In this document: piece by piece, positions 459-11,079 of the stretch
How positions within the stretch are numbered: position 1 is the stretch's first letter
How the letters are laid out: each line of letters starts with the position of its first letter
Origin: Bdellovibrionales bacterium
GTDB taxonomy: Bacteria > Bdellovibrionota > Bdellovibrionia > Bdellovibrionales > JAGQZY01
Direction of reading: 5' to 3'
DNA length: 64,000 nucleotides
Assembly (NCBI GenBank): GCA_964229765.1
Contig: CAXREJ010000051.1
Span: forward strand, 52,662-116,661
The notes under the pieces: generated by a model
Databases searched by the model: none
Seen by the model: the letters and a program-made list of their open reading frames with translations, nothing else
What the model was told of the DNA's origin: nothing
Made by a program: the position numbers and the translations under genes

Positions 459-1145
459 GTGGAAATAGGGCTAAATACGTTTAACTTAATGGCGATGAAT
501 CCAACTTTATGGACATCAACTCAAGGTGTTCTTCTCGCTTTTATCATAGGAAGTCTTTTAGCGCTGACCTACATTTTGACATATGAAGGCTTAAGTTACT
601 CTAAGAGCTTTATACAATCATTAGTATTAAGTCCGATTGTTTCTGCAATTGCGATGATGGCTATAGATGGTAGCTTAGCTCGTGGTATTGGTATGATGGG
701 AGCCTTTTCTATATTGCGATTTAGATCTAATCTTAAAGATCCTAAAGATATGTTTTTTCTTTTTGCCAGTTTATCTTTAGGAATTTCTTGCGGAGTTCTC
801 GCTTTTTCAGTGACTATTACGGGAACTATTTGTTTTTGTGTTGTTATTTTTATTTTATCTAAAACGCCGTTTACTCAAACGTCTAATTTTGACGGGCTAT
901 TAAGGTTTAATATCCCTGCGGATTTAGTTAAGCAGGAGAATGTTAATACTATTTTAGTAAACAATTGTAGACGCTTTGCTTTGGTGACAATTAAAGATTC
1001 TGCGCAAGGAAATAGAATAGATTTCGCTTATCAAATAAAATTAAAGAATGAAAATCAACAAGCTCTTCTCGTAAAAGAGTTACAGGCTGTTGAAAGCTTG
1101 AGCGGGTTACAGCTTTTATTACAGCAATCGACGATGGAAGTGTAA
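459..1145 (+). CDS. DUF4956-family integral membrane protein
   Basis: 228-aa ORF with a GTG start and several hydrophobic helices. The motif GAFSILRFRSNLKDPKDMFFLFASLSLGISCG matches the remembered DUF4956 core (AFSLVRFRS...FLAMAxGLAxG). Confidence 0.65.
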   Translation: MEIGLNTFNLMAMNPTLWTSTQGVLLAFIIGSLLALTYILTYEGLSYSKSFIQSLVLSPIVSAIAMMAIDGSLARGIGMMGAFSILRFRSNLKDPKDMFFLFASLSLGISCGVLAFSVTITGTICFCVVIFILSKTPFTQTSNFDGLLRFNIPADLVKQENVNTILVNNCRRFALVTIKDSAQGNRIDFAYQIKLKNENQQALLVKELQAVESLSGLQLLLQQSTMEV

Positions 1146-1149
1146 TAAG

Positions 1150-2034
1150 ATGGCCGCAAATACTTTAGAAGATATAAAAAAGAATACAGTAAAAACTCAC
1201 AGAAGTTCCTTTTTTAAGGATTTGGAGTTTCTGATAGTTAATAAAGTGTTGTTCTTAGGGATTTCAACGGCTATGGGAATCTTACTTTGGGTGAGTTACG
1301 TTAATTATAGCACTTATCAGATTTTACCAGGAATGACGGAGTCTAATCCATTTAATATCAACTTTCAGGAACCAGTGGTGGTCAAAGAAATTTTAGTTCA
1401 ATCAGGTCAATTAATTAATAAGGGAGATGTTCTTTTTATCCTGAAAAGACCTGATATTCAAATGAGGCACTACGAAAACAAAGCGCTGCTTAAGCAGTCT
1501 GTGGTTGAGCTTAATATTCTCTATGAAAAAAATTGGTATGCAAAAAAATGGGCTACTTACTTACAGAATAAGCAAGATAAAAATACTTCCTTGTCCGTAT
1601 CTGAGATGAAGTTTTTGGCAATGTACGAAACAGATCAGTTTCTAGAAAATGAAAAGCAAAATTTAAAAGTGGTTGCTCCAGTGACAGGGCACGCCGGTGA
1701 GATCTTAATCAATGTTGGAGAAACAGTGGCACCTTATACGAGCCTTATCTCTGTTTACAGGCCTAAGGCAAGTATTGTTAAATCCTATATACCTGAAACT
1801 TTTAATATTGCTGAAATTAATAGAAACCGAAAGTCAATTATCCGTTCTATGTCCAGAAGTTATCAAATTCATGGAGATGTTATTTCAATAGGAACAATGT
1901 TGACAGAACTTCCAGCTCGTTTTCAGAAAGATCCACTGAATAAGCTTTATGGGAGAGAAATAAAAATATCTTTACCAGAGGGAAATAAATTTTTCTTAGG
2001 CGAAAAGGTTTTTGTCTCTTTAGAGGGAAGTTAA
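1150..2034 (+). CDS. HlyD-like membrane-fusion / periplasmic adaptor protein
   Basis: 294 aa with an N-terminal TM helix (VLFLGISTAMGILLWVSYV). It has lipoyl-like hairpin halves (ILVQSGQLINKGDVLFIL ... VVAPVTGHAGEILINVGETVAPYTSLISV) and a C-terminal beta-barrel pattern. It starts 4 nt after the upstream stop. Confidence 0.6.
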   Translation: MAANTLEDIKKNTVKTHRSSFFKDLEFLIVNKVLFLGISTAMGILLWVSYVNYSTYQILPGMTESNPFNINFQEPVVVKEILVQSGQLINKGDVLFILKRPDIQMRHYENKALLKQSVVELNILYEKNWYAKKWATYLQNKQDKNTSLSVSEMKFLAMYETDQFLENEKQNLKVVAPVTGHAGEILINVGETVAPYTSLISVYRPKASIVKSYIPETFNIAEINRNRKSIIRSMSRSYQIHGDVISIGTMLTELPARFQKDPLNKLYGREIKISLPEGNKFFLGEKVFVSLEGS

Positions 2035-2035
2035 A

Positions 2036-3211
2036 GTGCTCCATTTTGCTCTTATTTTTTTAACTGTAAGTCATTCATTGTGTATGGCTCTGGCCGCTAC
2101 CGATCCTATTATTGAGTGGGTTAATAAAGAAGTCGGGGATGGGGGAGTACAGTCTGTAGAGGCACTCAATCCCGGTCTTTTTCCCTTTAATGATAGTGAA
2201 ATACGAATTGAAACAGATAATAATGGTATATTCAATGAGCAGCAAATACGCTTTGGATTAAAGCCTATAATGGGGATGACTAATGAAATTAGACTTTCTC
2301 GGCAAAGACGTAAGGTAATAGAATTAAAGAAAAAGTTCTATGCTTCAAATCGATTATTATTAGCCTATCTTGAGGTTTTAAATTATTGGAAGCTACTAAA
2401 AATGCAAGAAATCTTGGAGGAAAGTGATACTTTTTTTCAGAAGGCTCAAAGAAATTTACATGCTCTTCAAGGGGATCATGCTTTTGATTCTAATGGCTTT
2501 GTTTCTGATTTGGCTTTTTTTGCGGAAATAAAATCAAAGGTCAATTCTCAAATTATTGGTATCCGTGAAGAGTTTAATAGTGAGACTAAAAGTTTATCTT
2601 CTTCCTATATTAAGAACTTGGTTTTTATTGATTATCCAAAGATGAAAACGGTTTTAAGCTCTTTAGAAAAAAAGATGGACTTAACTCTGGAGCTGGAAGT
2701 TCAAAAAATGAGTCATCTGGAGTTTGAGCGCAAGAAAAGGGAAGCTTATCAAGTATTAAAATTCATATCAGTAAAGAGGGATGAGAATGTTTTTCGTCCA
2801 CAAGATTTTAGTGTTCAGTTGGCTTTTCGACTCCCATTTTTATCTGATAGTTCAGAGCTGGAAGATGCGAAGCTGGATTTTTATGAAGAGAAAATAAAGT
2901 TTCATACAGCGAAAATAGAAAAAGAACAGTCTCTTTCTGAGTTATATTCTGAGTTTCAAGGATTAAGTGAGAAGATTAAAATCTTACAACTTTTACCTAA
3001 AAGTAGTTTTAATCGTCAGAAACTGGCTGGCTCCATGACTGATTTAGGTTCCGCATTAAAAAGTGAGACCAATTTTTTGAAGGCAAAACTGAATTATTTA
3101 GAAACACATACTCAAATTTTTTATTGTTACTTGCAGATACTATCCTTCAAAGGAAAATTGAAAGATGTAAGTTATAATCCACTTTCGCAAACACCTCAGT
3201 TATTGAAATAG
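2036..3211 (+). CDS. Secreted coiled-coil protein, possibly the outer-membrane partner of the adjacent adaptor (TolC-like role not shown)
   Basis: 391 aa with a GTG start 1 nt after the upstream stop and a signal-like N-terminus (LIFLTVSHSLCMALAA). Long heptad-like helical stretches are present. No diagnostic motif was recognised. Confidence 0.3.
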   Translation: MLHFALIFLTVSHSLCMALAATDPIIEWVNKEVGDGGVQSVEALNPGLFPFNDSEIRIETDNNGIFNEQQIRFGLKPIMGMTNEIRLSRQRRKVIELKKKFYASNRLLLAYLEVLNYWKLLKMQEILEESDTFFQKAQRNLHALQGDHAFDSNGFVSDLAFFAEIKSKVNSQIIGIREEFNSETKSLSSSYIKNLVFIDYPKMKTVLSSLEKKMDLTLELEVQKMSHLEFERKKREAYQVLKFISVKRDENVFRPQDFSVQLAFRLPFLSDSSELEDAKLDFYEEKIKFHTAKIEKEQSLSELYSEFQGLSEKIKILQLLPKSSFNRQKLAGSMTDLGSALKSETNFLKAKLNYLETHTQIFYCYLQILSFKGKLKDVSYNPLSQTPQLLK

Positions 3212-3394: not shown

Positions 3395-4465
3395 ATGGTC
3401 TTAAAGAAAAAAAATAGAACATTATTCTCGCTTACAAGAAGTCTAAGAATTATTTTTATCGAGATGCTTATAGTTTCATTAAGTGCTTGTGGGCCCGTAT
3501 TGCATCAAGCTGAAACACTTACCGATGAGATGAGCTTAGAGAATGAAAACCATAATGGTGAAGAATTAGCAAATGATGGAGATCATTTGGAAGGTGACAT
3601 TATCGACAATGGCATTCAAAGTGATTTGTCAGTGTTTCCTGATGGCCGTCCCCTTTCTTCTGTCAAAGTGAGTGGTTCATCGTTGAATGTTTCTTACGGA
3701 ACAGGTTACAGATTTACAGATGAGAATATGCAAGATTACTTACAACTAAAAAAAGCCAGTCTGGAACAAAGTGGACATCCTGTTCAATGGGCATTTATGA
3801 ACCTGTCCAATGGAAAAATGATCGCTAAAAGCCAATCTTCTGATTTAAAAATCTTTGGAGCTTCTAGTTCTAAGATTTTTGTTGCTGCGACACTGCTCGA
3901 TAAGAATAAAGGGGAGTTGAGTGATACAGAGTTGCAAAAAATGGCGGATATGATTGTTGTATCCTCAAATTCGGCTTGGACACAATTGCAGACGATCATT
4001 GGTGATGGGTCCTCTGATCGTGGAAGAGAGGCTAACTATAATTTCACACAAAAACTGGGCTATGAGAAAACAAGAGGGTGGCAGGGCTACTGGGGTTCGA
4101 TTCATGGTAATGAGCTTGTTCCAACTGAGACCGTTGAGTTTCTTTATGATACATATCAACAAAAGTTCCCTGGAGCAGAATGGCTATGGAAACTGATGTA
4201 CTCTTGTCGCACGGGGAGTACGAGAGGTAAAAAGTATCTACCTAAAAGTCTAGTTGTTGGTGGAAAGACCGGAACTTATGATGGTCCTACTGAGAACCCT
4301 CAAACGGGTGAGTCTTATACGGTAAAAATTCGTAATCATGTTATGATCTTTAAAGTGGGAGAGACGCAGTATGGACTTGCGATTCTTGCTAATTCTGGGA
4401 GTAATGAATCAGCAGCCCTCATGGCGGGAGGACTGCTTAGAGAATACACTGATTTTACTGAATAA
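3395..4465 (+). CDS. Lipoprotein, class-A beta-lactamase-like / PBP-like serine hydrolase
   Basis: Lipobox LSAC|G is followed by an acidic linker. The motifs occur in class-A order: SxxK (ASSSKIF), SxN (VVSSNSAW) and KTG (GGKTGTYDG). Confidence 0.6.
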   Translation: MVLKKKNRTLFSLTRSLRIIFIEMLIVSLSACGPVLHQAETLTDEMSLENENHNGEELANDGDHLEGDIIDNGIQSDLSVFPDGRPLSSVKVSGSSLNVSYGTGYRFTDENMQDYLQLKKASLEQSGHPVQWAFMNLSNGKMIAKSQSSDLKIFGASSSKIFVAATLLDKNKGELSDTELQKMADMIVVSSNSAWTQLQTIIGDGSSDRGREANYNFTQKLGYEKTRGWQGYWGSIHGNELVPTETVEFLYDTYQQKFPGAEWLWKLMYSCRTGSTRGKKYLPKSLVVGGKTGTYDGPTENPQTGESYTVKIRNHVMIFKVGETQYGLAILANSGSNESAALMAGGLLREYTDFTE

Positions 4466-6014
4466 ATGGACGAACCTGTTTTAAATAAACACTTCTGCTG
4501 CCAGTGTCTAAATCATCCACCTTAAATTCAATATCAAGAGGTTTTGCGATCTGATCTTCGCCAGCGAAGACGGGAGCAAAGTGTTCAACGGCTTTTAAGC
4601 TTTGATATACAAGTTCCTTAATTTCTTCATTTTGCAATACAGGAACCGGATTGGGATTGGGTAATACAGTGATCATGTCGTCGGCGATATTTGATTGTGC
4701 TAAGACATGAACTTCATACTGTGACTTATCGAGTGGTTGTTGTTCATTGTATAGTACAAGAATTTTCTCAGACTCCACACCCACAAGAGGATTGGCAACA
4801 CTGTGATCATCTCCTCTCTGAGCTTCAATATAAACTCCTGCCCCTTGTAGGTCCTCTCTTTGAGCAACATTAGCGGTTACGAGTACTCCGTCAGCTTCTT
4901 CATTGCTATAAGAAGGATTAATTTGTATCGCCATGTAGATTTGATCATGGGCAATCGCAAAAGCTTCTCGTTCTTCGTAGGCTCGTAAGTTCCAAACGGA
5001 GCCCCATACAACTTTGATGGCTTTTTTAAGGCTTTTTAGTTTTTTATTTGTCGATTTTTCTTCACCATTTTTATTAGGTTTATAGGATTCAGAAGTGTAG
5101 AGACCGGCTCCATTAAAATTTGGTAAATCTTCAGCATTGGTGGAGCTTCTCAACTTCATTTTCATTTTGTGGCCTTGAGCATCCACATAATTGTCTAATC
5201 GTGTGAGAAGTTCATTAAGAAAGGACTCATCAATAAGAGTTGCATCGGATTCAATAAGTCCTCGTACTACAGATAGTTTTTCTTCGCGATAACGACTGGC
5301 AGAAATTCTTCTCATTAAAGGATCTCTAAGTAGGTTTGAGATGGCATCTTTTAATATCGGATTATTATCCACAAATTGAGAATAGTAATAAAAAGGCACA
5401 GCCATTGATGGACGGACAAGAGTTTGATTATTGGTATTTAATGCACGGGCTAATTCGGCATAGTTTGCGGCTTTAGATCCAACTTTATCAAAGTCTTGCC
5501 AACCTAGTTCATCCATAGTGAAAATGGTTTGAGTTTCTATATCTGCAACAAGATCAATGGGTTCTCTCGCCGCTACCTTTTGACGGTAAAAGTTTTGAGC
5601 TTGCCCTTGATTTGATTGGGTTAAACTAACTTCCCCTTCAGCTGTAGCAATGAGATGAACCCAGTCACCATCTGTAAATCCGCCAAAGATGGGATCATTC
5701 ATTCCTTGCTCAAGTGCGGAGATATCCAGATTGGGTATTTTTTTTGCACGAGCTTTAATGAGGACATGTGATAGGGCCCCTTGGGGTTTTAAAGTAATAG
5801 TTCCCGCGACATCTGACATATCAAAAGGCATTTCAGCAAAAACCGGAATTGATAGTGGAGAAAGAGATTTATATTTATCTGATTCATCTAAAATGTCTTC
5901 GGCTGATAAATAGACAAGTTGCCCATGGGTTTCGCCAGGGTTTACAACTCGAACTTGAGCTGTAGCAAGGTTTGTAAAGAAAATTAGAAATAGAAATATA
6001 TATAAGGTTTTCAT
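4455..6014 (-). CDS. Secreted PEP/pyruvate-binding (PPDK_N, ATP-grasp) domain protein
   Basis: 519 aa with signal peptide MKTLYIFLFLIFFTNLATA|Q. VGSKAANYAEL and LRSSTNAEDLPNFNGAGLYTS match the PPDK_N hallmarks (GGKAxNL; RSSAxxEDxxxxSFAG). Its 3' end overlaps the convergent gene by 11 nt. Confidence 0.6.
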   Translation of the reverse strand: MKTLYIFLFLIFFTNLATAQVRVVNPGETHGQLVYLSAEDILDESDKYKSLSPLSIPVFAEMPFDMSDVAGTITLKPQGALSHVLIKARAKKIPNLDISALEQGMNDPIFGGFTDGDWVHLIATAEGEVSLTQSNQGQAQNFYRQKVAAREPIDLVADIETQTIFTMDELGWQDFDKVGSKAANYAELARALNTNNQTLVRPSMAVPFYYYSQFVDNNPILKDAISNLLRDPLMRRISASRYREEKLSVVRGLIESDATLIDESFLNELLTRLDNYVDAQGHKMKMKLRSSTNAEDLPNFNGAGLYTSESYKPNKNGEEKSTNKKLKSLKKAIKVVWGSVWNLRAYEEREAFAIAHDQIYMAIQINPSYSNEEADGVLVTANVAQREDLQGAGVYIEAQRGDDHSVANPLVGVESEKILVLYNEQQPLDKSQYEVHVLAQSNIADDMITVLPNPNPVPVLQNEEIKELVYQSLKAVEHFAPVFAGEDQIAKPLDIEFKVDDLDTGSRSVYLKQVRPFIQ

Positions 6015-6025
6015 TTTTTTTCTCC

Positions 6026-7402
6026 CTATTGATTTAACATCACAGAAACAGAGTTTAAAGAAGAGGACTTTAAAGTGTCATCGCGGAATTGTTCCATTGA
6101 GCTTTCACCGCTGGCGGTTATCCAAGTCGTTAGGTTGGAGCCAAACACCTCATCAAGTGTCATTGAGGCAATATCTAAAATATCAAACATTAGTGAAGAG
6201 GCACTCTCATTTTCAGTTCGATTCATTTCTTCATAAAAGTAAATCCAGTTGTCTTTGATTAATAGGCCTTCAACAAAAATCATATTAAGAAGAGTTAATC
6301 CTTTGGTTTTTGAATCAATGGCTCCCAATTTAATAGTCTCTTTGTTAAGATAGTCACAAGTGCTAGCAATACCAGAAAGGGCTTTAGCCTTTTTGTCCCA
6401 AGGGATAGAGTTGGTAGTAAGCTCTTGCTTGGCCTCTACCAAAGCTTCAGAGAGTAAGAATAATGACTCTGCATTTACTCCAGCAGTGATTAAGTGTTCG
6501 GCCGCGACTTTTAAATTAACTAAGCCAGCATTGTTTGCAATTGTTACTAAATCCTCAGGACTTGCGTTAAAGTATTCTGTGAGCATCCTATGAATTCTTT
6601 GAAGATAAGTGTGACCATCGCGCCCATACCAAGAGTTTGCACTCAAGTAATCTTCGATCATCTTTAAGACATTTTCAGAGAGATTATTATGAATGGCATT
6701 TCTAAGTCGGTAGAGTCCGCGTACTCTTGAGTCTGAAGGCCCCCAGCTTTGGGCAAAAAAGTCATAAGAGTCTTTAATAAGTTGTCTAGACTCGGCAAGA
6801 GATGATGAGTTTACTATGGGACTTTGTTTGGCGAGCAAGTAAGCTGGTAAATATTGGTAAGAATTTTTTATGAGTGACAGATAAAAGTTAAAGAAGTAGG
6901 TCGCATATTCTTGTTCAAATTCAGAGCCAGCGATACCTCTAGTATTAAATCCTCTCGTGATGCCAGAGTCGGGAAAATGTCCTACATAGTATTTTTCGAG
7001 TACCCAATGAAGAATCATTTGATTGGCTTTTTCAATGGCAGCTTGACCAGAGGCAACTAAAGTTTGGTGGTCTAAGGAGAAAGAACCTTGCGGATTGTTG
7101 TATACAAACTCACCCATTAATTCGTAATAATTGGTTGTGAATAAGTTACCTGTATAAACTCCAAATTCACTTACTAAGCTTTGAGCCGAATCATTGCGAT
7201 AAGCCGCTTGAAAGAGGAAACTTCCAGAAGGAGAGGCTCCTGATCTCACAGTTGTGCGACTTCTTGTTCCTTGTAAATAATTGAGCCCAAAAGGACCTTT
7301 TTGAATTCGTTGAACCTCTTGGAAAAGCTCAGTCACATTAGCTTGGGCTAAAAGAGGAAGACCAAGTAAAAAAATAAAAATAAAATTGCTTACTAATTTC
7401 AT
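6026..7402 (-). CDS. Secreted hypothetical protein
   Basis: 458 aa with signal peptide MKLVSNFIFIFLLGLPLLAQA|N. It sits 11 nt upstream of the next gene in the same operon. No motif was recognised. Confidence 0.7.
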   Translation of the reverse strand: MKLVSNFIFIFLLGLPLLAQANVTELFQEVQRIQKGPFGLNYLQGTRSRTTVRSGASPSGSFLFQAAYRNDSAQSLVSEFGVYTGNLFTTNYYELMGEFVYNNPQGSFSLDHQTLVASGQAAIEKANQMILHWVLEKYYVGHFPDSGITRGFNTRGIAGSEFEQEYATYFFNFYLSLIKNSYQYLPAYLLAKQSPIVNSSSLAESRQLIKDSYDFFAQSWGPSDSRVRGLYRLRNAIHNNLSENVLKMIEDYLSANSWYGRDGHTYLQRIHRMLTEYFNASPEDLVTIANNAGLVNLKVAAEHLITAGVNAESLFLLSEALVEAKQELTTNSIPWDKKAKALSGIASTCDYLNKETIKLGAIDSKTKGLTLLNMIFVEGLLIKDNWIYFYEEMNRTENESASSLMFDILDIASMTLDEVFGSNLTTWITASGESSMEQFRDDTLKSSSLNSVSVMLNQ

Positions 7403-7412
7403 TATTTGTCCC

Positions 7413-9236
7413 TTAATAAATAGTATTTAAAACATCTGATTTTTCTTGTTCAAAAGCGGCACTGCCACAATCTTGTGAATTAGACGTTGGAGCACAGCCT
7501 TTAACTCTTCCCATAAGGCGAACGAGGCGCATTCCAATAGTTGAGTTTCCTCTTGATTGCATACCTGAAGTGGTTATTGGGCTATAGAATTGAACTTTGT
7601 CTCTTTCGTAAGTTTGTTCATAGAGTGGGAAAATACCGGACACTTCCATGGAAGTTCTTACTCTTTTTCTTTGTAGATCTAAATGGGAGGGCATGGAAAC
7701 TTTAGGATCTAAAAACTCAAATTGACCAGTGACTCCATTGGTTTGAAAAACATTGTTTTGTCCATAAAGGTCTTCGTAGAAGTTATATTTATCATCCATT
7801 GCAATATTGAGATTTTTTCCATCTCGTTTAGAAAGTCCACTGGACCCTTGAGTGTCATAGGAAATCATATATTCAACACCCATGACTTCAACATTGCCAT
7901 CACCATCAATATCGTAAAGATCGAAATCTTCAGAATCATTTCCAAACTGATAAACCTGTTTCATTTTTTCATTTTCTACAGGCATAATATGTCTCATTTC
8001 CCAAACATGACCTAAAGGTAGTCTCAAGCAGCCACTTGAAACTCCACCACGTTTGACAGCCCAAAGCTGAGTGTGGTTGGTGGGGGCCATTAGTAATTCT
8101 TTTACTGAGTTTGAGAAGCTTCCGCCAGCAAAGCGTACCGCGGGATTATGGAAACCATTTCCAATCGCTTCAAAGTCCATTTTTGGTGCCCAGCCATAGT
8201 AAGGCTCTCTTCTAATGTGATCAACCTCATGGTATCCTCTATCAAGGAAAGGCCATAAACCTGGAGTAGCAAATTGTGGTATTCTATTTCCAAAGCGATC
8301 TCTCGTTGAACTTTTTAATGAGCCTGTGGGGTAGATGGTCGTAAATTCGTAATAGTTAAGCCAGCATTGGTCTTCTGCGCAGTTAATAGCATCAATCCAC
8401 TGACCATTATTATCAACCGTTTTGAAGTCATATTTCTCAGAAGTTATTTCTTTAAAAAGCTCTAGTGCTTGAGCTAAGAAGGCTGTTTCAGAATAATCGG
8501 CTACTAAATTTGCTAATTGTTGTAGGCTATTAACAACCTCAGTCGATGGAGTTTCTGTATAGTTAACTCTTCCCCATACTAGGGAGTTTAGTGCTTTGAT
8601 CGTTTCTTCGGAGTTAGTAGTAAAGGCTTGTTCAGGGCTTTGACCATTTAGAATAGAGGGGACAAGGTCTTTCCATTTGGCAAACTCATTGTTTAAGTTC
8701 AATCGAATTTCGAAGACACGACCAGGGTTCAGTTGTTTCATCACTTCAACACTTTGTTGGTAAAACAAAGGAGAGGTGGGGTTATTGGAACTCATTTTTT
8801 CTTGAATTCCATAAACGGGAGAAGTCACCACATTTTTAAAATTTTCTAATTGAGGTAGGAGTTCAGAATTGTCTGGATTGATATCTAAAGCGGCACGATG
8901 ACCGTTTTGAGAGGTGGTCATTTCTTCGTAGAAATTGAGGCGAGTCACTAAGTCATAGAGATAGTCTTGTAATGTCTTATCATCAAGGATAACACTCACA
9001 CGAGTTTGATTGCCACGAGAAGTGCGTATATGAATTCTATTTGGAAATTCACTTCTAGGAGCGAAACCAGTGTAAAAACTGGGGTAGTAATAGCTAATCC
9101 TTCCTTCTCCTGGTTTCCAACTTGTTCCCCAAACTAAAATTGAGTTGTTGTATTCATCAATAGGTGATTGTGCTTTAGATCTTGAAGTGGAGATAAAGGT
9201 TAAGGCCACAATAGTAAAAAGGGTGGTCAATTTCAT
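7413..9236 (-). CDS. Secreted protein with a YkuD-type L,D-transpeptidase-like catalytic signature
   Basis: 607 aa with signal peptide (...TFISTSRSKA|Q). H388-x14-S-G-C403-L-R (NHTQLWAVKRGGVSSGCLRL) fits the YkuD motif H-x(14-17)-[ST]-x-G-C-h-R. The Cys codon is at 8028-8030. Confidence 0.55.
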   Translation of the reverse strand: MKLTTLFTIVALTFISTSRSKAQSPIDEYNNSILVWGTSWKPGEGRISYYYPSFYTGFAPRSEFPNRIHIRTSRGNQTRVSVILDDKTLQDYLYDLVTRLNFYEEMTTSQNGHRAALDINPDNSELLPQLENFKNVVTSPVYGIQEKMSSNNPTSPLFYQQSVEVMKQLNPGRVFEIRLNLNNEFAKWKDLVPSILNGQSPEQAFTTNSEETIKALNSLVWGRVNYTETPSTEVVNSLQQLANLVADYSETAFLAQALELFKEITSEKYDFKTVDNNGQWIDAINCAEDQCWLNYYEFTTIYPTGSLKSSTRDRFGNRIPQFATPGLWPFLDRGYHEVDHIRREPYYGWAPKMDFEAIGNGFHNPAVRFAGGSFSNSVKELLMAPTNHTQLWAVKRGGVSSGCLRLPLGHVWEMRHIMPVENEKMKQVYQFGNDSEDFDLYDIDGDGNVEVMGVEYMISYDTQGSSGLSKRDGKNLNIAMDDKYNFYEDLYGQNNVFQTNGVTGQFEFLDPKVSMPSHLDLQRKRVRTSMEVSGIFPLYEQTYERDKVQFYSPITTSGMQSRGNSTIGMRLVRLMGRVKGCAPTSNSQDCGSAAFEQEKSDVLNTIY

Positions 9237-9434
9237 AAGAGGACTCCTAAAATAATTAAAGTTATTAACTCAATAACAACAGTTATGGATGCGTGGCATA
9301 AAAAAGACGGGGACGGTAAAATTTTTAGATTAAAAACGGAACAGATGATCTAATTAGGGCAAGCAGTGATGATTGATATAAGTTCTATTAGGTTATTTAT
9401 TTTAAAGACTTAGAAGAGATGATTGATTGTAAAT

Positions 9435-9471
9435 AGGTATGTTTTACCTTTCGAGGATGAAAAACATACCT
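9435..9471 (-). terminator. Candidate terminator hairpin downstream of the aldehyde dehydrogenase gene
   Basis: Perfect 11-bp stem aggtatgtttt/aaaacatacct with a 15-nt loop. The U-tract on the minus strand is weak (ATTT). Confidence 0.35.
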
Positions 9472-9573
9472 TTGTATACCCATTAAATATGTAAGTTATT
9501 CATATGGTTTAAGTCTGTGAAAAGAGGACTTTCTTATCAACTTTTCTCATTGGAACTCATAATTAAATTAACT

Positions 9574-11079
9574 TTAGGTTGAGACATTTTTCATAAATAC
9601 TGTTTTAATTTGGGTGTGCTGTAATAAGGCCCACTCTGAATTTTCCCTTCCTATTCCAGACATTTTGTAGCCACCAAAGGGTATTTCAACAGGAGTTTCG
9701 TTGTAAGTATTAATCCAACAAATTCCAGCTTCAATTAATGTGGAAGTTCGATGGGCTTTTTCAATGTTTTGAGTGTAAATTCCAGCAGCAAGACCGTAGG
9801 GAGTGTCATTCGCTCTTTCAATGACTTCGTTATCATCTTCGAAAGTGAGTAAGCTTATTACGGGTCCAAAAATCTCTTCTTTTACAATCGTCATTTTGTC
9901 ATGGCACTGATCAAAGATGGTGGGTTCCACAAAATAACCAACATTTCCCCATGGTCGACCACCACAAAGAATACGCGCTCCTTCCTCTTTTCCAATCTGA
10001 ATGTAGTTGAGAACTTTTTCTTGATGTTCTTTTGAGATGAGAGCTCCTGTTGTTGTTTCAGGGCTCAGAGGATCTCCTAATTTAAGTTGTTGAGTTTTCT
10101 TTATTAGTTTTTCCTTGAAGCTTTCAGCAATTTTTTTGTGAACAAAGACGCGTGTTCCATTGGAGCAGACTTCTCCTTGTGTAAAAAAGTTTGCATCTAT
10201 GGTGCCTTGGACAGCCAAATCGAGACTGGCATCATCAAAGATAATGAGGGGGGACTTTCCACCCAGTTCAAAAGTTAGATGTTTTAATGTCGAGGCTGCG
10301 GCTTCCATGACCTTAATTCCAGTGTTTACTTCGCCAGTGAGAGAAATTTTTTTGATGGAGGGATGATTGACCAACTTTTTTCCCACTCGCTGATCTCCTT
10401 GATAAACTTGAAAGAGTCCCTTAGGAAGGCCAGCCTCAATAAAAATTTTGGCAAGTTCAATAGCTGTTCTCGGCGTGAGTTCACTTGGTTTAAAGATCAT
10501 AGCATTTCCTGCGGCAAGGGCAGGAGCGGCTTTCCAAGCCGCAATTTGAAGTGGGTAATTCCAAGCTCCAATTCCAGCCACAACTCCGAGAGGTTCTCTT
10601 CTTGTATAAATAAAATCAGAACCTAATTGGTAGGAATCACCTTTAAGGCTTCTAGCGATACCTCCAAAGTATTCTAAGGCATCTGCGGCTGAGGTGATAT
10701 CCACCGATAAAGTTTCTTGAATGGGTTTGCCAGTGTCTTCGGTTTCAATAAGAGCGAGTTTTTGGGTTTTAGCGCGTAGGAGGTCAGCGGTTTTTAGTAA
10801 TATTCGTCCTCTTTGAGTGCCCGTATAGTTTCTCCACTCTCTTTGGGCTGTTAGTGCCTCACTAATTCCTTTCTCAAAATCAGCATCGGAAATGGAGTGA
10901 ACAATTGATAGGATCTCTTCAGTGGCTGGGTTTATATTTTCCCAATGGTGAGTTTTTTTGTCACGGCTTTCATTTCCCGTTATGAAACTAAAAGTAAAAT
11001 CATTCATTGATTGTATCCCATACAGTTGAATTGGTTTCATATTATCCATGGACTTAAGAGTGTAAGAGCGAAAGTACAT
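9574..11079 (-). CDS. betB: NAD-dependent betaine-aldehyde dehydrogenase-like aldehyde dehydrogenase
   Basis: There are long collinear matches to remembered E. coli BetB: YTRREPLGVVAGIGAWNYP.QIA.WK.APALAAGNAMIFKPSE, ELGGKSPLI.FDDA.LDLA, CSNGTRVFV, EAGICWINT and GYK.SGIGREN. The true start may be an internal Met (11049 or 11040). Confidence 0.8.
   Translation of the reverse strand: MYFRSYTLKSMDNMKPIQLYGIQSMNDFTFSFITGNESRDKKTHHWENINPATEEILSIVHSISDADFEKGISEALTAQREWRNYTGTQRGRILLKTADLLRAKTQKLALIETEDTGKPIQETLSVDITSAADALEYFGGIARSLKGDSYQLGSDFIYTRREPLGVVAGIGAWNYPLQIAAWKAAPALAAGNAMIFKPSELTPRTAIELAKIFIEAGLPKGLFQVYQGDQRVGKKLVNHPSIKKISLTGEVNTGIKVMEAAASTLKHLTFELGGKSPLIIFDDASLDLAVQGTIDANFFTQGEVCSNGTRVFVHKKIAESFKEKLIKKTQQLKLGDPLSPETTTGALISKEHQEKVLNYIQIGKEEGARILCGGRPWGNVGYFVEPTIFDQCHDKMTIVKEEIFGPVISLLTFEDDNEVIERANDTPYGLAAGIYTQNIEKAHRTSTLIEAGICWINTYNETPVEIPFGGYKMSGIGRENSEWALLQHTQIKTVFMKNVST

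Follow-up and report, generated by a model that had tools for sequence, protein, structure and literature searches.

Which reaction could be carried out outside the cytoplasm by a set of secreted proteins, one of them with an ATP-grasp domain? This question is raised by a locus in contig CAXREJ010000051.1 (assembly GCA_964229765.1) of a Bdellovibrionales bacterium, of which a stretch of 64,000 nucleotides was analysed and is called the window. Three open reading frames (ORFs) on its minus strand, named A, B and C in the direction of reading, were found to encode proteins of 607, 458 and 519 amino acids, as had been read from the sequence before, with gaps of 10 nucleotides (A-B) and 11 nucleotides (B-C) that contain GGGA/GGGAGA ribosome-binding sites. 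A gene for a lipoprotein hydrolase lies beside them. With a probability of roughly 0.55, the locus encodes an exported split dikinase, made up of B and C together, which acts together with a cysteine enzyme (A) and a serine hydrolase, all on one extracytoplasmic substrate.

Co-conservation, B-C fusion and export signals of the three proteins

The co-conservation of the module was followed in 40 genome loci that contain an A relative, which were searched with all module proteins. The genes A, B and C were found in the same order and direction in about 33 of the 40 loci, the remainder being contig ends or solo copies of A. The distances between homologues, computed pairwise for 24 loci, were correlated among A, B and C (r 0.92-0.96; A against the hydrolase, 0.84), which speaks for joint inheritance and no more, because related loci are not independent. 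The hydrolase gene was found to adjoin the trio in about 24 of the 33 complete loci, either upstream of it (divergent or co-directional) or downstream (co-directional or convergent), which makes four arrangements in all. A, B, C and the hydrolase were the only recurrent families among the 529 neighbouring ORFs.

B and C were contained in a single ORF in two loci from different genera (L107 and L109), with lengths of 949 and 973 amino acids, in which the B part occupies residues 28-469 followed by the C part at residues 473-947. The open frame at the C match was 981-1060 amino acids long in four further genomes, and B and C are therefore fused in at least two genomes and probably in six in all. 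Such a fusion is a classic sign of two proteins working as one. That the three genes are chance neighbours without a joint function is hardly credible, since the order is retained among proteins of only 35-67% identity and in diverse genomic surroundings, several genomes have B and C as one protein, and the divergence of A, B and C is correlated.

The signal peptides were judged by a heuristic (basic n-region, hydrophobic h-region and small residues at positions -3 and -1), which was passed by 36 of 40 A, 36 of 40 B and 35 of 39 C family members (about 90%), the failures being mostly start-codon miscalls. Cysteine was absent from mature B in 28/40 members and from mature C in 31/39, and the cytoplasmic PPDK of the same genome contained nine. 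Protein A was found to contain five invariant cysteines, namely the close pairs C286/C291 and C581/C590 and the lone C403. Few or paired cysteines are a common trait of exported proteins. The B-C fusion proteins contained a single N-terminal signal peptide, and the internal signal peptide belonging to C was absent. The signal-peptide features, the cysteine pattern and the loss of the internal signal in the fusions fit with Sec export of all three proteins. The original prediction of Sec signal peptides on a co-secreted, co-conserved enzyme set was in this way upheld, the recurrence of the trio in other genomes having been proposed as its check.

A putative split dikinase formed by C and B

The ATP-grasp signature noticed earlier in the last protein was clear in the profile search. 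C was found to match Pfam PPDK_N (PF01326) with an E-value of 2.3e-20 and 73.6 bits against a cut-off of 27, the same family was matched by all 39 relatives of C, and the best 120 matches of C were full-length PPDK_N proteins of the same size. The family profile was aligned over residues 160-421 to the phosphoenolpyruvate (PEP) synthase structures 9dae (E 5.9e-10) and 2ols, with VGSKAANYAEL of C over VGGKNANLGEM, followed by LRSSTNSEDLP over VRSSATAEDLP. The invariant columns include K181, R289-S291, E295, D296, D494, E496, Q513 and R515. As the nucleotide-binding motifs are conserved relative to the PEP synthases, the ATP-grasp domain of C looks functional. In NCBIfam, C was placed weakly near the rifamycin-inactivating phosphotransferase, and an ordinary PPDK of 895 amino acids is also encoded by the same genome.

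The N-terminal domain of C (residues 22-135) was found to read PGEAxGQLVYL...SIPVFAELP...VVAGAITLKQQNLLSHVQLKSRARxTPNLDIS...DGDWVHM, which is block by block like the PEP-utilizers swivel domain. The comparison was made by hhalign with an alignment of the PEP-utilizers domain from the PPDK, PtsI and PpsA genes of the phylum, and a P-value of 5e-4 was obtained over 92 columns, with S82-H83 placed on the catalytic T-S-H. The reversed target gave 0.18 with the same query, unrelated profiles gave 0.34-0.52, and a broader query gave a P-value of 9e-4 against the domain (90-92 columns over both queries). The C proteins ranked high, without significance, in a plain hidden Markov model search. The domain is, with moderate support, quite probably a phosphohistidine swivel domain. 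Of the secreted nucleotide-dependent domain in the original prediction, the ATP-grasp was retained, but C is more fittingly seen as one half of a dikinase, with a putative phosphohistidine domain and an ATP-grasp, to which the middle protein probably adds the third part.

The middle protein, B, had been left unrecognised at the outset and stayed so. Nothing was found for it in Pfam, NCBIfam or the PDB by sequence, and nothing recurrent was returned by profile searches; its 144 homologues were without domains. The AlphaFold2 model of B, with a mean predicted local distance difference test (pLDDT) value of 92.3, was found to contain a small N-terminal beta element followed by about 20 helices, and a Foldseek search of this model against the PDB found no neighbour (best E 0.15, template modelling score below 0.2). 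The alignment of B contained 36 invariant columns, mostly of Arg, Asn, His, Glu, Asp and Lys, and KGxxGxN and RNSIHN were among the invariant motifs that survive in fused forms of 24% identity. Such a pattern of conservation is more in keeping with a ligand pocket than with a scaffold.

Dikinases need three modules, namely an ATP-grasp domain, a His swivel domain and an acceptor-binding domain (PMC4844700, PMC12167813). A third module is physically coupled to the swivel-like and ATP-grasp domains here, as B lies 11 nucleotides upstream of C and is joined to it in L107 and L109. In potato GWD1, carbohydrate-binding domains are followed by a central domain, the His domain and the ATP-binding domain (PMC13553574). 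B would be the acceptor module because the B-C fusion has this domain order, and it is proposed here as the acceptor-binding part of the dikinase.

On this basis, B and C are together read as an 'X, water dikinase' split over two genes. ATP would be bound by the ATP-grasp domain of C, the beta-phosphate would move to His83 on the swivel-like domain of C, with AMP and phosphate as the expected by-products, and from there it would be handed to the acceptor, which B would bind. The predicted reaction would be ATP + X + H2O -> AMP + X-P + Pi (X-P, phosphorylated acceptor; Pi, inorganic phosphate) by way of phosphohistidine. Protein A would be a cysteine-dependent enzyme with an active-site segment like that of the L,D-transpeptidases, the neighbouring lipoprotein would be a serine hydrolase with the fold of class A beta-lactamases and penicillin-binding proteins, and the two would share their extracytoplasmic substrate with the dikinase. 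The leading guess for this substrate, a weakly supported one, is a cell-envelope polymer such as peptidoglycan, either of the bacterium itself or of its prey.

The closest likeness in domain order was found with GWD1 and the phosphoglucan, water dikinase of plants, in which the order of substrate modules, His domain and PPDK_N corresponds to [B]-[His domain]-[ATP-grasp] in the fused B-C, and one relative of C was found to match Pfam GWD1_pHisD weakly. However, GWD consists of one plastid polypeptide that carries CBM45 domains, whereas the proteins described here are exported and are usually encoded by two genes, and B is unlike CBM45 or any solved domain. HpeHI, CreHI, PpsAB and rifampin phosphotransferase (RPH) share with the present locus an ATP-grasp domain, a His-swivel domain and a separate acceptor domain over one or two polypeptides. 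These enzymes depend on a conserved His, which in PpsA and CreH is preceded by Ser (PMC12167813, PMC4844700), and C contains S82-H83. In the split dikinases HpeHI, CreHI and PpsAB, the cut lies between the swivel and the ATP-grasp domain (PMC12167813); in HpeHI the swivel stands with the substrate domain and the ATP-grasp alone, whereas here the swivel stands with the ATP-grasp and B alone. These known enzymes are cytoplasmic and act on small molecules, and in C the T/SxxGGxxxH loop is altered. The ATP-grasp domain of C was matched best in sequence by PEP synthase and PPDK, which follow the same phosphohistidine logic, but C is without their PEP/pyruvate TIM barrel, its domain order is permuted and a signal peptide is present. 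To our knowledge, dikinases of the PPDK, GWD and RPH types are known only inside cells or plastids. Literature searches found no published description of an exported dikinase or of the trio in Bdellovibrio.

Protein A, the hydrolase and the rival explanations

More than 230 homologues of A were found at 45-67% identity, none of them named and none with a Pfam domain above threshold. In the candidate active-site segment, the position of which is given in Table 1, R396, G397, S400, G402, C403, G409, H410, E413 and R415 were invariant or nearly so, a distant subfamily of about 550 amino acids included. The motif SxGCxR is formed by S400, G402, C403 and R405, which are invariant in the family, and follows the pattern S/T-x-G-C-h-R. 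Trp392, His363, Cys403, His410 and the DxDxDG loop were kept in the distant subfamily, which is without the disulfide cysteines, and Cys403 is therefore taken as functional rather than structural. His388 was replaced by Tyr or Gln in relatives, and at the canonical spacing of about 14-20 residues ahead of the Cys no conserved His was found; of the two that are conserved, His363 precedes Cys403 by 40 residues and His410 follows it. D439, D442, G445 and D446 of the DxDxDG segment were conserved in all relatives, with weak EF-hand/FG-GAP matches in 12/40 and 7/40.

The window's A gave no significant match in Pfam or NCBIfam and none at all to Pfam YkuD (PF03734, threshold 23.4 bits), and sub-threshold matches were found in 7 of 40 relatives (best E 0.0018, about 13.7 bits), covering profile positions 84-139 and residues of about 335-412. 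By hhalign, P-values from 2e-4 to 9e-4 were obtained between A and YkuD, confident over 17-18 residues only, with 0.013-0.024 for the reversed controls. Sequence and profile searches of A against PDB chains gave nothing meaningful. The AlphaFold2 model of A (pLDDT 92.6, predicted template modelling score 0.92) was found to contain a local order of strand, Cys, helix and strand that is compatible with the YkuD fold, as judged in the full-length model only. When that full-length model was searched with Foldseek, neither the PDB nor BFVD gave a match with E below 0.001, and none of the 50 best PDB hits was a YkuD chain. Two candidate bridges to YkuD were rejected. A library of 1.84 billion proteins gave ten core-only relatives of A without a YkuD match, and an open frame of 607 amino acids with a YkuD match in one genome (G009) turned out to be an unrelated lipoprotein. 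The orthologue of A in Bdellovibrio bacteriovorus R0 is named 'YkuD domain-containing protein' in one public source.

A resembles the YkuD L,D-transpeptidases in that it is exported and contains S-x-G-C-x-R followed by a helix, on which the weak profile similarity is centred; it differs in its length of 600 amino acids, with about 340 residues before the core and about 170 after it, and in that the canonical His is not conserved. The original prediction of a YkuD-type Cys signature was hence sustained for the invariant SxGCxR motif but not for His388, which had been taken as its His, and the resemblance of the supposed L,D-transpeptidase-like domain stayed at the level of the motif. The fold search proposed for the models of A and B returned no PDB match for either. 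A is described here as a YkuD-like Cys centre, perhaps by remote homology, within a much larger architecture that is otherwise without a recognised relative, and it was not filed as YkuD.

Second copies of A that stand solo, without B, C and the hydrolase, were found in four loci (L013: 7911-9707; L014: 7956-9725; L030: 7998-9818; and also L027). Those of L013 and L014 stand beside RND (AcrB/CzcA-type) pumps and P-type ATPases, in L013 with an HMA domain and an outer-membrane factor, and that of L030 beside an RND pump only; small exported His-rich proteins were also found near solo A copies. The solo paralogue may be a component of metal-stress islands, a link that may merit a look since the catalytic Cys of L,D-transpeptidases is poisoned by copper.

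The hydrolase family, of about 315 amino acids, is of the Beta-lactamase2 type, and the window copy was found to score 22.2 bits in Pfam against a cut-off of 22. It contains a lipobox LSAC followed by a long acidic linker. S157/K160, S190/N192 and K291-T292-G293 were invariant in 15 orthologues and form the motifs SxxK, SxN and KTG in order. The nearest solved proteins were class A beta-lactamases, with weak scores, and the NCBIfam class A cut-offs were not reached (24.6 against 320 bits, and 23.4 against 200). The three motifs are shared with class A beta-lactamases, from which the hydrolase differs as a lipoprotein with a long acidic linker and a conserved linkage to the dikinase trio. In the window copy, a linker of about 70 residues rich in Asp, Glu and Asn follows the lipobox (3395-3700), and most orthologues are about 40 residues shorter and without the linker. 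In the divergent carrier locus L107 (3707-7787), a canonical YkuD gene (232 amino acids, Pfam 2.4e-11) was found directly upstream of A, in the usual place of the hydrolase, followed two genes further upstream by a gene for a class A penicillin-binding protein (887 amino acids, PBP1A). This arrangement, from a single locus, is the only concrete pointer to peptidoglycan and is taken as a hint.

Several results weigh against a split dikinase acting on an envelope polymer. The hhalign probability for the N-terminal domain of C against the PEP-utilizers alignment was only 23-31%, Pfam PF00391 was found in one of 39 C members (E 0.17) and GWD1_pHisD in one (E 0.2), and the N-terminal profile gave no match among PDB sequences. 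The usual GG before the His is replaced in C, with an invariant Q78, and the loop is one residue longer. B showed no likeness to CBM45, to the rifampin-binding domain or to the PEP/pyruvate barrel, and no YkuD fold was detectable by Foldseek in the model of A. The chief difficulty lies in the source of ATP: as ATP is not known to occur in the periplasm, an exported ATP-grasp protein needs a special source, which for a predator might be a permeabilised prey cell. The link of the module to peptidoglycan is circumstantial.

A narrower form of the split-dikinase reading, in which B-C phosphorylates peptidoglycan or another envelope glycan of prey or self, with ATP from permeabilised prey or an unrecognised periplasmic source, and in which the mark directs or permits processing by A and the hydrolase, appears unlikely as a whole. 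It is rather unlikely that the locus is instead a set for peptidoglycan cross-linking, with A as a very divergent true L,D-transpeptidase, the hydrolase as a DD-carboxypeptidase supplying tetrapeptide donors, and B-C as an accessory regulator or energy-independent binding partner rather than an active kinase. The invariant SxGCxR motif followed by a helix, the sub-threshold YkuD matches in 7/40 members of A, the label of the R0 orthologue, the intact SxxK, SxN and KTG of the hydrolase and the canonical YkuD and PBP1A genes near A in L107 are consistent with cross-linking. However, no A member was found at the Pfam YkuD threshold and the distant relatives gave no bridge, no YkuD structure was returned by Foldseek for the confident model, the His expected at the canonical distance varies among relatives, and every ATP-grasp motif is kept in C, which argues against a dead kinase.

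A small-molecule module, in which B-C phosphorylates a diffusible compound (an antibiotic, a toxin or a phenolic) in the manner of rifampin phosphotransferase or HpeHI while periplasmic inactivation or processing of related compounds falls to the hydrolase and A, is decidedly unlikely. The weak NCBIfam placement of C, the existence of two-component small-molecule dikinases (PMC12167813), the class A beta-lactamases as the nearest solved relatives of the hydrolase and a patchy accessory distribution typical of resistance genes would suit it, but the known small-molecule dikinases are all cytoplasmic, B is unlike the rifampin-binding domain, the split point differs from that of HpeHI, where the swivel is found with the substrate domain, and the hydrolase lies far below the beta-lactamase cut-offs. 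It is very unlikely that C works without free extracellular ATP, either with another donor or in reverse, with phosphate taken through His83 from a phosphorylated compound of envelope or prey; in further variants C would be loaded before export or would act after delivery into the prey cytoplasm. In its favour, the periplasm is not known to contain ATP. HpeH alone shifts phosphate between substrates without ATP (PMC12167813), and PPDK-type reactions are described as reversible (PMC5371819). Yet the nucleotide-binding motifs of C are fully conserved, which suggests that a nucleotide is still bound, and no delivery system was found to be encoded among the 529 neighbouring ORFs. The exported split dikinase with a cysteine enzyme and a serine hydrolase is preferred here.

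Features, carriers and meaning of the module

The features of the locus are collected in Table 1. The promoter-like site upstream of A was obtained by consensus matching only, and in the scan for promoters and terminators the scores were no better than those of shuffled sequence. No match to the PADLOC defence models was found for A, B, C or the hydrolase.

Table 1. Positions in the window of the module genes and of the segments and residues referred to in the text.
Feature	Position	Strand	Description	Source
Gene A	7413-9236	minus	607 aa, exported Cys/His protein, orphan family of about 600 aa	ORF
Gene B	6026-7402	minus	458 aa, exported, mostly helical orphan protein	ORF
Gene C	4455-6014	minus	519 aa: signal peptide, putative phosphohistidine swivel-like domain, ATP-grasp	
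Hydrolase BL2	3395-4465	plus	lipoprotein, class-A-beta-lactamase fold; convergent with C, 11 nt overlap	
Region 5' of A	9237-9573	minus	337 nt intergenic; AGGAG site; weak promoter-like site 9454-9426	
Signal peptide of A	9171-9236	minus	residues 1-22, ...SKA|Q; AlphaFold2 pLDDT low here	
Candidate active-site segment of A, RGGVSSGCLRLPLGHVWEMR	7992-8051	minus	R396-R415, most conserved part of A	
Cys403 of A	8028-8030 (codon)	minus	lone invariant Cys	
His410 of A	8007-8009 (codon)	minus	follows Cys403	
His363 of A (NGFHNP)	8148-8150	minus	sole other His conserved family-wide; invariant, nearly so in the distant subfamily	
DxDxDG calcium-loop-like segment of A	7887-7922	minus	D439-E450	
ATP-grasp (PPDK_N) domain of C	4458-5537	minus	residues 160-519	Pfam
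Swivel-like domain of C	5610-5951	minus	residues 22-135, first ~115 mature residues	
Candidate phosphocarrier His83 of C	5766-5768 (codon)	minus	S82-H83 invariant	

Upstream of A, an aldehyde dehydrogenase gene was found (9574-11079; Pfam E 4e-167), the predicted start of which adds an N-terminal extension of about 40 residues; it was rejected as an operon member since its adjacency to the trio is not conserved. A DUF4956 gene, an HlyD-like gene and the next secreted protein (459-3211) stand beside the module in no more than 7 loci, all from the closest relatives, and are neighbours by descent, outside the module.

The homologues of A were found nearly all in metagenomes or metagenome-assembled genomes (MAGs) labelled Bdellovibrionota, Oligoflexia or Bacteriovoracia. 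Of the 201 species genomes in a sample of the phylum, 7 were found to contain A. The search was negative in the one other member of the window's genus that was sampled and in each of the 11 genomes of a genus with complete assemblies of 3.3-4.0 Mb. The patchy spread points to an accessory module and argues against a core role in predation, and the module looks accessory rather than part of the core predatory equipment. The link to predation put forward in the original prediction gained no support.

Some carriers are MAGs labelled Gammaproteobacteria or Chromatiales, and in a phylum sample around one such MAG, made up of different genomes, A was found in none of the other 40, with sizes up to 5.8 Mb. 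The module was found, with B and C fused, on MAG contigs labelled Gammaproteobacteria, Chromatiales and even Bathyarchaeota (L031, L033, L035, L037, L041 and L034). These carriers reflect either cross-phylum transfer or mis-binned contigs. In L109, A has an IS200-like transposase gene (9925-10557) immediately on its upstream side, which fits a patchy, possibly mobile distribution.

The cultured carrier is Bdellovibrio bacteriovorus R0 (LUKE00000000; genome described in PMC5941755), in which the four genes are co-directional. They are followed in R0 by an astacin-type metalloprotease gene (L076: 12069-13007), and trypsin-like or S28/S37 peptidase genes were found near the module in other carriers, none of them conserved.

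A conserved exported dikinase with intact ATP-binding motifs would call into question the view that the periplasm and the space outside the cell are free of chemistry driven by ATP. A and B are large, well-conserved families with confident models and without a Foldseek match in the PDB and in predicted viral proteins. Were the acceptor to be a wall polymer, predatory-type bacteria would have an envelope modification of a new kind. Should phosphorylation of such a polymer by B-C prove true, it would be a new covalent modification of the wall, the first ATP-driven dikinase outside the cytoplasm and an exported bacterial counterpart of starch phosphorylation. The presence of the genes in the cultured B. 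bacteriovorus R0 makes the question testable, and the module suggests that an ATP-dependent reaction not yet described runs outside the cytoplasm.

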